The position numbers and the translations under genes were made by a program. Positions 1 through 33,821 of a stretch of DNA of 64,000 bases are shown in pieces (within the stretch, counting starts at the first letter, position 1; each line of letters starts with the position of its first letter). Source of the stretch: Bacillota bacterium (GTDB lineage: Bacteria; Bacillota; Ch66; Ch109); the NCBI GenBank assembly GCA_050952625.1, contig JBMNLH010000007.1, forward strand, positions 64,001-128,000, read 5' to 3'. The notes beneath the pieces are model-generated. The model was given only the letters and a program-made list of their open reading frames with translations. It was not told the DNA's origin and made no database searches.

Positions 1-35
1 AACTGTCTCACGACGTTCTGAACCCAGCTCACGTA

Positions 36-119
<84 letters not shown>

Positions 120-148
120 GCCGTCGATATGAACTCTTGGGCGAGATA

Positions 149-185
<37 letters not shown>

Positions 186-341
186 GATGGCCCTTCCACT
201 CGGAACCACCGGATCACTAAGCCCGACTTTCGTCCCTGCTCGAGATGTCTCTCTCGCAGTCAAGCTCCCTTCTGCCTTTACACTCTCCGAATGATTTCCA
301 ACCATTCTGAGGGAACCTTTGGGCGCCTCCGTTACGCTTTG

Positions 342-377
<36 letters not shown>

Positions 378-624
378 ATGTCCTCACCCTGGTTTACAGG
401 GCCGAGTTAGAACTTCAGTACACAAAGAGTGGTATCCCACCGTTGGCTCCACAAATCCTGGCGGACTTGCTTCTCTGCCTCCCACCTATCCTGTACATTG
501 CCTACCAAAATCCAATATCAGGTTGCAGTAAAGCTCCACGGGGTCTTTCTGTCCTGTCGCAGGTAACCGGCATCTTTACCGGTAGTACAATTTCACCGAG
601 CCCCTCGTTGAGACAGTGCCCAGA

Positions 625-709
<85 letters not shown>

Positions 710-731
710 TGGGGCTTCGGTTCAGAGCTTC

Positions 732-812
732 TCCAGCACTCAACCCTATATATCTCCTTTGTGGTATATCTCTATTGATATACAAGATTGATATACAAGG
801 TTGAGTGCTGGA
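732..812 (-). other. ~80-nt hairpin insertion in 23S helix 68 region
   Basis: Perfect 14-bp stem tccagcactcaacc/ggttgagtgctgga enclosing AT-rich sequence, about 25 nt 5' of the helix 69 motif where a short loop is usual. Confidence 0.8.
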
Positions 813-1008
813 TAACCCCTCCCCTTAACCTTCCAGCACCGGGCAGGCGTCAGCCCCTATACTTCAGCTTTCGCTTTGGCAGGGACCTGTGTTTTTGGTA
901 AACAGTCGCCTGGGCCTCTTCACTGCGACCCCCTCACGCTCTTTTGTGTTCACAATGTCACGCTACACGGGGTACCCCTTCTCCCGAAGTTACGGGGTCA
1001 TTTTGCCG

Positions 1009-1040
<32 letters not shown>

Positions 1041-1503
1041 AGGATTCTCTCCTCGCCTACCTGTGTCGGTTTGCGGTACGGGCACCCTTTTGCCTTGCTA
1101 GAGGCTTTTCTTGGCAGTTTGGGTTCAGCGACTTCGGTACTTAGTTTTCCCTCGGCGTCACCTCTCAGGGTTCACGTAAGACGGATTTGCCTATCTTACC
1201 CCCTACCAGCTTGCGCGTACTCGACCAACGGTACGCTTCGCCTACCCTCCTGCGTCCCCCCTTCGCTCGAGCGGCTTGGGGTGGTACCGGAATTTCCACC
1301 GGTTGTCCATCGCCTACGCCTTTCGGCCTCAGCTTAGGTCCCGACTTACCCTGGGCGGACGAGCCTTCCCCAGGAAACCTTAGGCTTTCGGCGGGCAGGA
1401 TTCTCACCTGCCTTTTCGCTTACTCATACCGGCATTATCTCTTCCCACCGCTCCACCATCCCTTCCAGGATGACTTCCACGCTGTGGGAACGCTCCCCTA
1501 CCA

Positions 1504-1789
1504 TGGTGGTTGGTCGGTTGGTCGTTGGGAGTGACCAGCCTTGCGGCGCTGCCGTTGGCCGCACGGCTCTGTCGGCTTTGCACGCAGGCGTGCTGTCCGG
1601 CGGGGGTGAATTCCGCAGTACCCCCTGCCTTCAGCAATTCAGCTGAGGGGCCCCAACTGCTCCCCCTTCGGGGGGTGACACGGTGTATTTCTAAAGACAG
1701 TTTATATGCCTTTTGATACACTTCCAATGTCCGATATCCAGCCATTTCCTTTCCTCCCAACCACTAACCACTAACCGCCAACCACCAAA
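1504..1789 (-). mobile_element. 23S rRNA intervening sequence (helix 45) with heptamer-repeat inverted arms
   Basis: ~285 nt inserted between conserved flanks gaacgctcccctacc and tccgtgatttcggtgg; arms 1505-1530 and 1755-1787 are complementary. Confidence 0.88.
1531..1745 (-). pseudogene. decayed four-helix-bundle (23S IVS protein / Avd-like fold) gene
   Basis: RBS GGAGGAAAGGA then MAGYRTLEVYQKAYKLSLEIHRVT; family-like motifs PKGEQ, QL, IAEG and TAEF follow in three different frames; no stop inside the IVS. Confidence 0.8.
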
Positions 1790-1838
1790 ATCCGTGATTT
1801 CGGTGGCGGACTTGAGCCCCGGGAATTTTCGGCGCAGG

Positions 1839-1874
<36 letters not shown>

Positions 1875-2138
1875 TGATGGCTGCTTCTAAGCCAACATCC
1901 TGGTTGTCTGGGCAACCCCACATCCTTTTCCACTTAGTCCACACTTGGGGACCTTAATCGACGGTCTGGGCTGTTTCCCTCTCGACTACGGATCTTATCA
2001 CTCGCAGTCTGACTCCCAAGGTCCGATTGATGGTATTCGGAGTTTGAGAAGGTTCGGTAACCGGGTAAGGCCCCTAGCCTATTCAGTGCTCTACCCCCAT
2101 CAATTATGCCTTGAGGCTAGCCCTAAAGCTATTTCGGG

Positions 2139-2180
<42 letters not shown>

Positions 2181-3192
2181 CCCACAACTCATCCACCGCT
2201 GTTTCAACAACGGTTGGTTCGAGCCTCCACGATGTCTTACCATCGCTTCACTCTGGTCATGGGTAGATCACCCGGTTTCGGGTCTACAGCAACTAACTTG
2301 CGCCCTCTTAAGACTTGCTTTCGCTTCGGCTCCGTTTCCTTAACCTTGCTAGTTACTGTAACTCGCCGGTCCGTTCTACAAAAAGTACGCCGTCACTCTT
2401 TCTTTCGAAAAAGCTCCGACTGGTTGTAGGCATACGGTTTCAGGTTCTTTTTCACTCCCCTCCCGGGGTGCTTTTCACCTTTCCCTCACGGTACTGGTTC
2501 ACTATCGGTCGCTAAGGAGTATTTAGCCTTAGGAGGTGGTCCTCCCTGATTCCCACGGGGTTCCACGTGTCCCGCAGTACTTGGGATCCCATCCAGGAGC
2601 CATAATCCTTTCGGTTACGAGGCTGTTACTCTCTGTGGCGGGGCTTTCCAGTCCGCTTCACCTAGAATTATGGTTTCTTACTCCTTTGGGCTGCTGCCGC
2701 TGCCCAGGATGGTCCCGCTACCCCTCAAAAGCAACGCCGGCAGGCTTTGACACTCTTGAGGTTTGGGCTCTTCCCGGTTCGCTCGCCGCTACTTGGGGAA
2801 TCACTGTTGTTTTCTTTTCCTCAGGGTACTAAGATGTTTCAGTTCCCCTGGTTGTCTCGGCTAACCTATGGATTCAGTTAGCCGTAACTGGACATTACTC
2901 CAGTTGGGTTGCCCCATTCGGAGATCCCCGGATCAAGGCCTGCTTGCGGCTCCCCGAGGCTTTTCGCAGCTTACCGCGTCCTTCTTCGTCTCTTAGCGCC
3001 TAGGCATCCTCCGTACGCCCTTAGTAGCTTGACCTTAGTCTTTCTACCTTAAGGTTTGTTTGGTTTATCCTTTGGCTTGCGCTTGACAGAACTTTTTTAA
3101 TATTCGCTGTGCAGTTTTCAGGGTTCAGTTGCATCATCTCTAGTCGAGCGGCATGGTCGCTTCGTAAGATAATTGCTAAGTTTAAAAAATTA

Positions 3193-3268
3193 TGGTGGAG
3201 ATGAGGAGAATCGAACTCCTGACCCCCTGCTTGCAAGGCAGGTGCTCTCCCAGCTGAGCTACACCCCC
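3193..3268 (-). tRNA. tRNA-Ala(TGC)
   Basis: GGGGGTGTAGCTCAGCTGGGAGAGC...TTGCAAG...TTCGATT...CCACCA, 76 nt. Confidence 0.98.
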
Positions 3269-3269
3269 A

Positions 3270-3392
3270 GATTAGACCTTAGAGTATAGATTTTAGATCA
3301 TTTTAGATCTTAGATATTTCATTTTTAAGGAATCGGTGTTAACCGATTCCTATTAGTCTAATATCTAATGTCCAATATCCAAAATCTAAATA
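3270..3392. repeat. ITS hairpin with degenerate AT-rich heptamer arms
   Basis: ttagacc/ttagagt/atagatt/ttagatc units face gtctaat/atctaat/gtccaat/atccaaa/atctaaa units around a perfect aggaatcggt-gtta-accgattcct stem. Confidence 0.65.
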
Positions 3393-3394
3393 AA

Positions 3395-3471
3395 TGGTGG
3401 GCCTAGGTGGACTTGAACCACCGACCTCGCGCTTATCAGGCGCGCGCTCTAACCAACTGAGCTATAAGCCC
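3395..3471 (-). tRNA. tRNA-Ile(GAT)
   Basis: GGGCTTATAGCTCAGTTGGTTAGAGC...CTGATAA...TTCAAGT...CCACCA, 77 nt. Confidence 0.98.
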
Positions 3472-3585
3472 ACATAAAACTTTTTTATTAAGCCTATTGA
3501 GGTACCGGTTACTGGTCCCTCAAAACTAAACAGTTGTTGCGAAGTCTGATGACCGACCTAGTTTCGCATCCTTTCGGATGTTACT

Positions 3586-5273
<1,688 letters not shown>

Positions 5274-30691: not shown

Positions 30692-32377
30692 TCAATTCCT
30701 TTGGAAAACTATGTGGACTCGCCAAAGCCGATCCCGGGGATTGGGATAATCCAGGCGGAAATGAGCACCCCGGCTTTCTCGGCGAAACCAAGCTGCAGTG
30801 GCGACCAATCGACCGAGCATTAACAGGTTAGCCGCCTCAACTTGGACCGGCTCAGTTATAATAGTTGGAACCCTTAGTGCCTCAGTTGACAGCCAGTTGA
30901 TGGCCTGGACTAAACTTTCCGCATTTCGAACCAAGCCGACCTTGTCCCACATTAACTTCTGGATATTACAAATGGTTTCGGCGGGATCAAAGCCATTTTT
31001 CCAGTCGGTCGCAATAAAATCAATTAACGCTGCTTCAGGTAAAGGTTGATTGCCAAAATCCGGGGTCCAAGCAAGCACCTGATCGGCCCCGTGTCTTTCC
31101 AAAGGAGGAAACTTTTCTAGCGGAGCAATATCCTGCTTGTTCCAAAAGGGCGTGGTGTTCCAAAAGTCTAAGCAGGACCGAACTATCCGATCGCCAAAAA
31201 CCAGCCCATCCAACAAAGAGTTGCTAGCCAAACGGTTGGCTCCGTGCACTCCATTACAGGCTGCCTCGCCGCAAGCATATAGCCCGGGGACCGTTGTTCG
31301 TCCACAGCCATCGGTTTTAATGCCGCCCATGGTATAATGAGCTGCCGGAGCAATTGGGATCGGCTGTGTTCCAATATCTATTCCATATTTCAGACAATTA
31401 CGGCTAATGCTCGGAAAACGGCGTCGGACCCGGTCAGCCCCTAAACGGGTCGCGTCTAAATAAACCGGGCCTTCTTGCAGCTCCTGCCAGATAGCTCGGG
31501 CGACCACGTCTCGTGGTGCCAACTCGGCCAAGGGATGGTAACGCGGCATGAAGCGTTCCTGGCGGTGGTTAAATAACAAGCCACCTTCTCCCCGTACCGC
31601 TTCGGAGATCAAAAATCGAGGTGCCCCGGGCAGTGATAGCGCGGTGGGGTGAAACTGGACAAACTCCAAATCCATCAGCCGACAACCCACCCGATAGGCA
31701 GCCGCTACTCCATCGCCAGTAGCAATCGATGGATTGGTGGTATTCTGGTATAACTGGCCGGCACCGCCGGTAGCCAGCACCGTAACCCGCGCCAGGTAAA
31801 TAATCAAGTGACCGCTCTGCCGGTCCAAGGTCAATACGCCAATACATTGGCCGGCCTGGTTGGTCAAGATGTCCAACACCAAACTATTCTCGTAAACAGT
31901 TATTTTAGATGTTCGTTCACATTGCCGGACCAGGGTTCTCTGGATTTCATTACCAGTCGCGTCGCTAGCATGAATAATTCTCGGATGACTGTGAGCCGCT
32001 TCCCGAGTAAAAACAATATTGCCTTCAACCTTATCGAAGTCAGCCCCCATCCGGATCAATTCGCCTACTCGGGCCGGCCCCTCATTCACCAAGATCTCGA
32101 CGACTGATTCATCGCATAATCCCGCTCCAGCCGCTAGAGTATCCTCTCGGTGGAGTCGTGGAGAATCTCGTTCATCTAAGGCTACGGCGATGCCGCCCTG
32201 AGCTAAGTCGGTATTGCTATCCATCCTTCCTTGCTTGGTTAACACCGTTACTATTCCGTAGTCACTGGCCTTTAAGGCTGTAAACAGCCCGGCAATCCCG
32301 CTCCCGACTACTAAGAAATCAGTCTGAACTACATCCAATTGATTGGGGTCAAACCAAGTCAAGAACCTTCTGGTCAC
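30692..32377 (-). CDS. nadB: L-aspartate oxidase
   Basis: GSGIAG, AQGGIA, QFHPT, ISEAVRGEG, HYTMGG, GVHGANRLASNSLL, ESRGAH. Confidence 0.96.
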   Translation of the reverse strand: MTRRFLTWFDPNQLDVVQTDFLVVGSGIAGLFTALKASDYGIVTVLTKQGRMDSNTDLAQGGIAVALDERDSPRLHREDTLAAGAGLCDESVVEILVNEGPARVGELIRMGADFDKVEGNIVFTREAAHSHPRIIHASDATGNEIQRTLVRQCERTSKITVYENSLVLDILTNQAGQCIGVLTLDRQSGHLIIYLARVTVLATGGAGQLYQNTTNPSIATGDGVAAAYRVGCRLMDLEFVQFHPTALSLPGAPRFLISEAVRGEGGLLFNHRQERFMPRYHPLAELAPRDVVARAIWQELQEGPVYLDATRLGADRVRRRFPSISRNCLKYGIDIGTQPIPIAPAAHYTMGGIKTDGCGRTTVPGLYACGEAACNGVHGANRLASNSLLDGLVFGDRIVRSCLDFWNTTPFWNKQDIAPLEKFPPLERHGADQVLAWTPDFGNQPLPEAALIDFIATDWKNGFDPAETICNIQKLMWDKVGLVRNAESLVQAINWLSTEALRVPTIITEPVQVEAANLLMLGRLVATAAWFRRESRGAHFRLDYPNPRDRLWRVHIVFQRN

Positions 32378-32385
32378 TTAACGTT

Positions 32386-32668
32386 CCTGGTTTCAAAAAC
32401 ACAATCAAACCTAGGAGAACTGGACTAAATCGTGTTTTTCACCCGTTCAACTAACGAGTAGTAGCATCACCGGATTCAGCTACCTAGCCACCAGCTCTCG
32501 CTGATGTTTCAGGTGGTTAATCGGCCGCCCGTCCGTTCGGCCCGAAGGGGAGTGTTGCCCACCGCCTGTTTAAATCTATCCGCGCCCGACTTTCGCCGGC
32601 GATCTGAGCAATGCGGAAGGATTTAAAAAACCAGTAGCTCGTTTCGGTAATGCTGTCAGGAAACCAGG
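32386..32668 (-). ncRNA. unidentified multi-branched structured RNA candidate in the nadA-nadB interval
   Basis: Nested helices on the minus strand with GAAA, GAGA and UUCG tetraloops and G-U pairs; no match to RNA families I recognise. Confidence 0.55.
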
Positions 32669-32712
32669 CTGGCACCACCTTTCTTTTTCATTTTAAGAGT
32701 ATGACTTTATCT

Positions 32713-32821
32713 AAAATCACAAGCTTCCCCCTTCTCGAAGTGGGGTTTACCTTATTTAACCCGAGGTGGAGTAGAGTCTTTCTCGGAAACTTTGATGTTC
32801 AGCCAAGCTGAACGGGGCACT
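32713..32821. repeat. miniature element family A copy
   Basis: aaaatcacaagcttccccttctcgaagtggggtttaccttatttaac...gttcagccaagctgaacggggcact. Confidence 0.75.
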
Positions 32822-32846
32822 GATATCACTCCACTATTGGCAGCTG

Positions 32847-33821
32847 CTACCCCAGAGCTAACATTCGATTAAGGGCCAGAGTCGCTGCCTTGCTGACTGC
32901 CGGCGGGACGGTAACTCGTGGTGTTAACGTCTGAAGAGCTCGCTTTAGTTTAAATAGATCAATGCTTTTCATATTCTCACATAACAGGACTGGTGAAGCC
33001 AAATAAAATGCTTTCTCTGGGTAACGGGTTTGCAACTGGTAGAGGATTCCCTGTTCAGTGCCAATAATAAAACTGTTGTTCGAAGATTTGCCCACATACT
33101 CAATAATCCCGGCCGTGCTAAACACGCCGTCCGCTAAGTTGATTACCTCGGGCCGGCACTCAGGATGCACCAAAACTTCTGCTTCCGGATGTTGATCCTT
33201 AACCTGCTGGACCGCCTCCACGCTTAAGTCGTGATGACTTGGACAGTAACCTTCCCACAAGACCATCTTTCGACCAGTTTTTCTCTGCACCCATTTCCCC
33301 AGGTTTTGATCCGGGACAAAAATCAACGGGACATCAGCCGGTAAAGACTCAACTACCCGAACCGCATTGGAAGAGGTACAGCAGATATAGCTTTCAGCCT
33401 TGACCGCTGCCGAAGAATTGATATAACAAACTACCAGGGCTCCCGGTATTTTTTCCTTTAATAGTCTTAACGCAGCTGGTTCAACCATATCCGCCATCGG
33501 ACAACCCGCATTCTCCTCGGGGATTAGCACTAATCGGTCCGGACAAAGCAAAGCTGCGCTCTCAGCCATAAACTGAACGCCGCACATGACTAACACCTCA
33601 GCTGAGGTCTTGGCCGCCTGCTGGGCGAGTTGCAAAGAATCCCCGACAAAATCAGCCACCCGTTGTATATCGGGCGGCTGATAAAAATGAGCCAGGATAA
33701 CCGCCTTTCGTTCTTTTTTTAAGTCTGCTATCTCCTGGATCAGCTTTACCTTCTGCGGGTCCTGATGACTCGGATTGTACAGCTCCAAAGTCAAAGTCTT
33801 TTCCACGATCCTTCCTTCCAA
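32847..33821 (-). CDS. nadA: quinolinate synthase
   Basis: LAHFYQ, GDSL, CGVQFMAE, AGCPMA, YINSSA, HPEC, GTE, CENMK. Confidence 0.96.
   Translation of the reverse strand: MEGRIVEKTLTLELYNPSHQDPQKVKLIQEIADLKKERKAVILAHFYQPPDIQRVADFVGDSLQLAQQAAKTSAEVLVMCGVQFMAESAALLCPDRLVLIPEENAGCPMADMVEPAALRLLKEKIPGALVVCYINSSAAVKAESYICCTSSNAVRVVESLPADVPLIFVPDQNLGKWVQRKTGRKMVLWEGYCPSHHDLSVEAVQQVKDQHPEAEVLVHPECRPEVINLADGVFSTAGIIEYVGKSSNNSFIIGTEQGILYQLQTRYPEKAFYLASPVLLCENMKSIDLFKLKRALQTLTPRVTVPPAVSKAATLALNRMLALG

Follow-up and report, generated by a model that had tools for sequence, protein, structure and literature searches.

A structured RNA upstream of nadB in a Bacillota genome is probably an orphan guide-RNA relic of an IS607-type, TnpB-related transposon

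The spacer between nadA and nadB in a Bacillota bacterium (NCBI GenBank assembly GCA_050952625.1, contig JBMNLH010000007.1) carries on its minus strand a large structured RNA, which is most probably an orphan guide-RNA (omega RNA or reRNA) relic of a decayed IS607-type, TnpB-related transposon, the terminal AGGA of which now serves as the nadB ribosome-binding site (RBS). The RNA is an uncatalogued member of the TnpB guide-RNA class, a class that is itself known. The assignment is carried by homology, by association with TnpB-related genes, by the motifs at the element junctions, by an empty site in a relative, and by the lack of a cognate protein in the genome under study. The function of the RNA as a guide in intact elements is suggested by analogy with studied TnpB systems; the nadB copy itself would now be a passive relic, with the supply of AGGA as its only necessary role. 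The window that was analysed is a stretch of 64,000 nucleotides of this contig, and all coordinates given without a prefix are positions within it.

The whole relic occupies positions 32386–32705 of the minus strand and consists of the terminal codons of a tnpB-related gene, now lost, followed by a structured RNA of approximately 300 nt, which reaches to the transposon right end. These borders rely on an alignment of six genomic copies, on a match to the covariance model R1 described below, and on the same RNA standing 3' of TnpB-related genes elsewhere. The relic is followed by nadB (L-aspartate oxidase, 30692–32377, minus strand; Pfam FAD_binding_2, 3.4e-94, and Succ_DH_flav_C) and preceded by nadA (quinolinate synthase, 32847–33821, minus strand; Pfam NadA, 1.1e-119). 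The identities of nadA, nadB and nadC were confirmed by Pfam, and the GTG at 32377 is the conserved start of nadB, the N-terminus being shared by relatives. In this genome the nadA–nadB spacer measures 469 nt and is composed of two repeats: the structured RNA and, in the 5' 115 nt, an unrelated dispersed repeat (repeat A, 32706–32821, minus strand). Aligned over 33 long copies, repeat A is sharply bounded and contains three internal hairpins, of which one has a UUCG loop; 86 further BLAST hits were obtained in the 2.9-Mb genome, and matches were also present in the second species of the genus (G001) and in another relative (G004). An Rfam search with repeat A gave no match, and a MITE or a REP-like sequence are the candidate natures. 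The sequence GAGAAGGGGG in the nadB spacer was considered as an old Shine-Dalgarno (SD) sequence with a left end, and was rejected, being a hairpin of repeat A.

The initial annotation had described 32386–32668 as a large structured RNA on the minus strand. A sequence check together with the MFE fold of 32370–32680 recovered every helix it had named: an outer helix P1, two nested helices inside it, a multiway junction bearing a GAAA-capped and a GAGA-capped hairpin, and two 3' hairpins. P1 is formed by CCUGGUUUC (32668–32660) and GAAACCAGG (32394–32386), with 95.8% of its cells paired over 21 sequences, and the helices within it are GCAUUACCG/CGGUGAUGC and AGCUAC/GUAGCU. The minus-strand fold has an energy of −118.8 kcal/mol and a z score of −4.43, which none of 100 shuffles equalled; the plus-strand value was −1.98, and here 3 of 100 shuffles did as well. 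The 3' strand of P1 (32386–32394) is also the transposon right end, with the GG core at its end. AGGA (32388–32385), the present nadB SD, lies in and next to this strand, stems from the last bases of the element, and is found 7 nt 5' of the nadB GTG (32377–32375), in agreement with the earlier view that the outer helix covers the nadB RBS; in relatives without the element, GGAGG is found 6–8 nt 5' of the same GTG. Of the proposed extent, the 3' end holds, and the 5' edge has to be moved from 32668 to approximately 32705 according to the alignment of the six genomic copies. Similarly, the cUUCGg noted in a hairpin is present in the sequence, but instead of capping a tetraloop hairpin it is probably one strand of a CUUCGGG/CCCGAAG long-range helix. 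The conserved core, as defined by the copy alignment and the structure, spans 32440–32570 (P5, P6, the 3' strands of P3 and P2, and P7).

The structure is conserved among the copies. RNAalifold applied to 11 full-length copies gave 12 pairs with compensatory changes, and a set of 48 hand-placed pairs was then evaluated over 21 aligned copies, which stem from 8 genomes. In this set 87.0% of the cells were paired, as compared with 31–46% when the partners were slid, and the check for homolog covariation that the initial annotation had suggested came out in its favour: 68 double-change cells were observed against 27.7 ± 4.7 in shuffles, none of 500 shuffles reaching 68. Covariation was strongest in two helices, the GAGA hairpin with 5 of its 7 pairs and AGCUAC/GUAGCU with 4 of its 6. 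In the long-range helix of CUUCGGG with CCCGAAG 2 of 7 pairs covary, and a competing GGYGG/CCRCC pairing is likewise kept; the 3' hairpin P7 has two registers, which is beyond a MAFFT alignment. The RNA thus has a conserved secondary structure with covariation, as do TnpB omega RNAs and reRNAs, although covariation among paralogs can date from the time when the elements were active.

The RNA does not belong to a catalogued family, as had been suspected from the sequence. Rfam 15 at the gathering threshold found only rRNA and tRNA in the whole window; an rRNA operon lies at 1–5273 on the minus strand (a 23S gene cut by the window edge, two tRNAs and a 16S gene). At E ≤ 10 on 32300–32900 there were just two snoRNA matches, both at chance level and on the opposite strand, and at E ≤ 1 on 13 loci with copies just an unrelated Moco (molybdenum cofactor) riboswitch and a chance miRNA match. 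This riboswitch (80.4 bits, G004 L049:2231–2351) is located approximately 0.6 kb from the C277 copy of G004. The RAGATH-18 covariance model matched neither the window region (E ≤ 10) nor the 13 copy loci (E ≤ 1), and the same holds for the Intron_gpI and ribozyme models, the sensitivity of Rfam for divergent introns being limited. Resemblances to RNase P RNA, a T-box leader, SRP RNA and a group I intron were also considered and were rejected, as there was no Rfam match and the motifs are explained by the transposon context.

A search of the window's own genome (G000, 95.9% complete) with the 469-nt nadA–nadB spacer as the query revealed six copies of the structured RNA with 72–78% identity. 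Each is located directly 5' of a gene on the same strand: nadB, the L25/ctc gene, pyrE, and the genes of a histone-deacetylase-family protein, an OpuAC-type binding protein and a transketolase N-subunit. The full 300-nt fold is kept in all six, and the copy alignment places the 5' ends of several of them at nearly one position; neither of these features would be predicted by pure decay. In the second species of the genus, G001, the orthologs of tkt, opuAC and the deacetylase gene have copies too, and others lie 5' of metK and of an MBL hydrolase gene. A genome from another family contains one copy, 5' of larC. Deletion variants devoid of P4–P6 occur 5' of metK and in G004. The last option listed by the initial annotation, a mobile structured RNA, was essentially correct: six copies precede unrelated genes, and the same RNA is part of TnpB-related elements.

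The link to these elements was established with R1, a covariance model of 133 positions based on the conserved core and built only from gene-less copies, which matches the window at 32440–32570 with 125.7 bits. Of 7 genomes in the class, 3 gave an R1 match, as did 6 of the 151 genomes sampled across the phylum and 3 of 4 from the order of G039. In these remoter genomes, the 3' end of an ORF overlaps with the RNA, and the C-terminus of the encoded protein has a RuvC-III-like motif. The protein family, annotated as 'IS200/IS605 family accessory protein TnpB-related protein', gave 485 hits among 8000 candidates scored. A scan with one genome per species yielded 226 confirmed loci, 80 of which were kept for the R1 test, and in 66 of these R1 matched at E ≤ 0.01 on the plus strand, 100–260 nt 3' of the TnpB protein match. 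The best scores belonged to Pelotomaculum, Desulforamulus, Desulfotruncus and related loci. No R1 match at E ≤ 0.01 was obtained in the other 14 of the 80 loci, at least 5 of which are cut by contig ends; the rest encode the most divergent proteins, with Halanaerobacter and some Clostridium loci not interrupted in this way. The RNA is therefore encoded, as omega RNAs are, on the same strand as a tnpB-family gene, at or just after its 3' end, while the window keeps only remnant codons.

Intact elements were found in the genome G068, which has two copies of a 2321-bp element, 99.7% identical. Each contains, in this order, an ORF with a MerR-type HTH and a Resolvase domain, a 468-aa TnpB-related ORF, and the RNA up to the right end. 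The first ORF matches Resolvase with 9.8e-22 and MerR with 5e-8, so that the element possesses a serine-recombinase TnpA with an N-terminal MerR-type HTH, which is characteristic of IS607. The 468-aa ORF matches NCBIfam TIGR01766 ('TnpB-related') with 41.4 bits against a cut-off of 32; its AlphaFold model has a pLDDT of 80.6, and a fold search placed it closest to Cas12f, Cas12k, Cas12m and Fanzor2 (best E 2.5e-10), whereas the sequence search against PDB chains gave no match at E ≤ 1. The two G068 copies part exactly after ...CCAGG, and this terminus recurs across loci; the scaffold thus ends at the transposon right end, so placed that the flank could act as a guide. A tnpA-like ORF, judged by position, was present in only 12 of 53 loci examined (within L083–L162) and is absent from the window copy. 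Most loci are TnpB-only elements with the left end 130–390 nt 5' of the gene.

Traces of the protein gene remain beside the orphan copies. The 5' part of the window element at 32673–32705, including the SD-like AAAGGUGGUG (32682–32673), is a degenerate remnant of tnpB-related C-terminal codons, as judged from the nucleotide alignment to copies with an open frame (G001 C80, G039 and G154); an interpretation of AAAGGUGGUG as a stabilising or stand-by SD was rejected, because it aligns with these tnpB codons. Profile A5, derived from the protein family, detected remnants of the C-terminus next to copies in G001 and G004. No cognate TnpB was found in G000 either with the G068 protein (E ≤ 10) or with profile A5 (E ≤ 0.01), and in the five other genomes of its family only remnants of the cognate gene were found; at 95.9% completeness, the gene could be in an unassembled part of G000. 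This genome has one other TnpB-family gene (C1:1582831–1584042, L070; guided_TnpB, 103 bits, a 490-aa open frame) and a broken fragment of another at C5:102167–102476. Both are unrelated to the protein clade to which the nadB RNA belongs, and R1 has no match beside either.

The junctions of the elements follow a simple rule. At the left end, GGAGG stands directly 5' of the conserved left-end motif in all 12 loci with a tnpA-like ORF. With a loose left-end pattern, GGAGG was found in 59 of 73 loci (about 5 judged spurious by eye); a stricter pattern had matched 11 of the 73 and missed known cases, and the loose one was used instead. On the right side, 62 loci could be assessed: in 42 of them ...CAGG is followed after 5–10 nt by the start codon of an ORF with 60 codons or more, the commonest distance being 7 nt (20 loci), and in 52 such a start is found within 30 nt. 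A GG core is hence present at both junctions, directly before the border on the left (GGAGG) and on the right (...CAGG), with the target motif at the left flank, as in IS607 elements. The pattern matches published IS607 biology. The study of the CboIStron (Zedaveinyte et al., 10.1101/2023.11.20.567912) reports a strict need of the IS607 TnpA_S for a GG core and a target that equals the TAM, and the ISFba1 study (Cell Res 2024, PMC11061315) gives 5'-AGGAG or GAGGG as TAMs of the IS607 TnpB, the same SD-like motif as the left flank here. A full-text search of main texts, with incomplete coverage, found no paper stating SD-directed insertion for IS607.

At the nadB locus itself, the comparison with relatives is informative. 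In G004 the nadA–nadB spacer is only 47 nt long and GGAGG is found 6 nt before the same GTG, which represents the empty site; in G002 and G005 GGAGG lies 8 nt before the nadB GTG. As the nadB copy has no left side, its insertion into the nadB SD is deduced from the relatives and the empty site rather than seen directly. A recognisable left end is absent from most G000 copies as well, and a left-end-like motif, after AAGG, was noticed by eye only before the opuAC copy.

From these results, a hypothesis regarding the origin of the nadB leader may be proposed. The intact IS607-type element encodes a serine-recombinase TnpA and a TnpB-related protein of the Cas12f fold; its RNA begins within the final codons of tnpB and stops exactly at the right end (...GAAACCAGG). 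Host DNA just past this end would, by analogy with studied TnpB systems, be the guide, and the protein–RNA complex would recognise the vacant site, that is, the GGAGG motif with its flank. Recombination would take place at the GG inside the SD, leaving GGAGG at the left junction, and the right end would set ...CAGG approximately 7 nt before the host start codon, by which a weak RBS would be rebuilt. In the window's genome, such an element would have landed in the nadB SD and would since have been stripped of tnpA and of nearly the whole of tnpB. The junction pattern suggests that the family targets RBSs and rebuilds a weak one, which would explain how it is tolerated inside operons before essential genes.

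The divergence between orthologous copies is in line with such decay. Two pairs of orthologs in G000 and G001 are 91.7% and 95.4% identical, as compared with 92.1% and 89.2%, respectively, at the 4-fold sites of the neighbouring genes; for the transketolase copies the element identity is 87.6%. Substitutions affect 17 of 283 paired and 56 of 621 unpaired columns, and are thus somewhat rarer in the former. Of 15 pairs changed between the species, 6 stay paired and 9 break. Judged from these sequences, the divergence appears close to that of neutral decay and fits drift, while the preserved fold with the SD inside P1 makes a residual effect on translation possible.

No promoter or terminator was found on the minus strand of the nadA–nadB spacer, so the element probably lies inside the nadABC transcript, and the orphan RNA module is probably co-transcribed in the nadA–nadB–nadC message. 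Metatranscriptome contigs from 4 runs of 4 studies cover the element; such contigs, which may stem from DNA carry-over, give no information on ends, strand or level. One of them, 349 nt long, spans 32370–32718, which is no proof of transcription or processing. A separate 57-nt contig (run X11) joins 32514 to 32646 and skips 131 nt of the interior; its shorter side has 27 letters, and it may come from a deletion-variant copy elsewhere.

Several known systems are related to the elements described here. The closest is the ISFba1 reRNA, which belongs to an IS607 TnpB and is derived from RAGATH-18: this scaffold (PMC11061315) also lies 3' of tnpB in a serine-recombinase element and ends at the right end. 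However, it is 187 nt long, while the scaffold found here measures approximately 300 nt, overlaps the end of the ORF and does not match RAGATH-18; the proteins also differ, the one in this work having 470–485 aa, lacking a zinc finger and carrying His at the position of the RuvC-III Asp, whereas that of ISFba1 has 387 aa and D-E-D. The CboIStron (10.1101/2023.11.20.567912) shares with our elements the strict GG core at both junctions, a target motif that equals the TAM, and a right-end omega RNA with a guide from the flank, but it has a group I intron and targets TGGG, while here no intron was found and the target is GGAGG at RBSs. In alignment A5, a Glu and a His are invariant and an Asp is nearly so, the His occupying the place expected for the RuvC-III Asp, and zinc-finger cysteines are missing. 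The same replacement of the RuvC-III Asp by His and loss of the C4 zinc finger are reported for the TnpB clade RIIIr-4 by Altae-Tran et al. (PNAS 2023, PMC10691335), and on these two features the protein family may be placed in RIIIr-4. With its His-type RuvC-III, its SD-like TAM and its missing zinc finger, this protein clade may interest those who mine genomes for compact RNA-guided nucleases. In practical terms, a ~300-nt uncatalogued structured RNA is now tied to a widespread Bacillota TnpB-related family (226 confirmed loci), and R1 can be used for the annotation of both intact elements and stranded relics.

A passive relic is not the sole reading of these data. The orphan modules could have been exapted, i.e. 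kept by selection as 5' leaders in which the SD is locked in P1, so that folding and unfolding gate the translation or stabilise the message of the six genes. Such a role would agree with most copies having no SD-like sequence 5' of the start codon other than the AGG(A) of the P1 3' strand, with the full fold of all six G000 copies, with the three copies that remain at orthologous loci in the second species of the genus, with the slightly lower rate of change in paired columns, and with a position inside an operon transcript, as suggested by the spacer having no detected minus-strand promoter or terminator. Nevertheless, we consider it unlikely: the preference of the intact transposon for its insertion sites fully accounts for the place before start codons, the downstream genes have no common pathway, the orthologs diverge at about the neutral rate with 9 of 15 changed pairs broken, and variants without P4–P6 exist before metK and in G004. 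Doubtful to a similar degree is the broader proposal that the TnpB-related IS607 lineage is a 'Shine-Dalgarno-homing' transposon which enters between the SD of a gene and its start codon and carries a replacement SD in its last bases, and whose leftover guide modules are retained as leaders that, with the new SD locked in the outer helix, gate the translation of housekeeping genes such as nadB, pyrE, ctc and tkt.

It is still less probable that the copies work as guides in trans, as mini-elements similar to the PATEs of IS605, with RNAs loaded by a TnpB-type protein encoded elsewhere and with TnpA acting in trans to move them. Gene-less IS605 elements encoding omega RNAs are described by Meers et al. 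(PMC10055086), and these resemble our copies in being dispersed, gene-less and equipped with a guide-RNA module. The left-end-like motif seen by eye before the opuAC copy and the one other TnpB-family gene of G000 (103 bits) might be taken in the same sense. The PATEs, however, belong to the Y1-transposase IS605 group and keep both ends, whereas most copies here have no recognisable left end and look like decay products. In addition, no cognate TnpB-related gene was found in G000 and only remnants in five other genomes of the family, and an identity of 72–78% between the copies argues against recent movement.

A self-splicing or self-cleaving RNA, similar to an IStron, that would leave the mRNA and join the upstream SD-like AAAGGUGGUG to the start codon is very improbable. 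IS607 elements with group I introns do exist, as described in 10.1101/2023.11.20.567912, and the element has an SD-like motif at its 5' edge and a start codon at its 3' edge. On the other hand, the SD-like motif is explained as tnpB codons, the fold is fully nested and has no P3–P7 pseudoknot order, and in the intact G068 element tnpA begins after only ~50 nt, too little space for an intron core. The ribozyme that the initial annotation had put forward as an option likewise gained no support, the Intron_gpI and other ribozyme models having failed to match at E ≤ 10 or at E ≤ 1 in the regions named above.

The favoured option of that annotation, a cis-regulator of de novo NAD synthesis, is refuted by the genomic context, homologs at unrelated loci being the outcome that the annotation itself had named as refuting it, and a riboswitch or another metabolite sensor controlling nadBC can practically be dismissed, since apart from the position 5' of nadB and the RBS in the outer helix nothing points to it: only one of the six copies in the genome precedes an NAD gene, all the copies examined in relatives stand before genes unrelated to NAD, metK, larC and the MBL hydrolase gene among them, no Rfam riboswitch model matches the element, and relatives express nadB from a plain 47-nt spacer. 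NAD+ riboswitches are the nadA and pnuC motifs, which are Rfam families. The element resembles them only in its place 5' of an NAD biosynthesis gene; it is about six times larger, matches no NAD+ riboswitch model in Rfam, and has five of its six copies at loci unrelated to NAD. In this way a tempting but false riboswitch call before an NAD operon is removed.

Two further features of the copies in G000 were recorded. The transketolase copy (L005:1499–1857) has an AT-rich insertion of approximately 57 nt in the loop after P3, composed of AGCTATAAAG-like repeated units, which is absent from the G001 ortholog. Besides the six copies, five short matches (26–40 nt, 83–96% identity) to only the conserved 5' edge, i.e. 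the tnpB tail and the 5' strand of P1, are present at C1:217623–217657, C3:56281–56310, C2:104306–104331, C4:320806–320841 and C4:131349–131388; one of them is accompanied by a weak R1 match (E 0.006), and they may be further-decayed copies.
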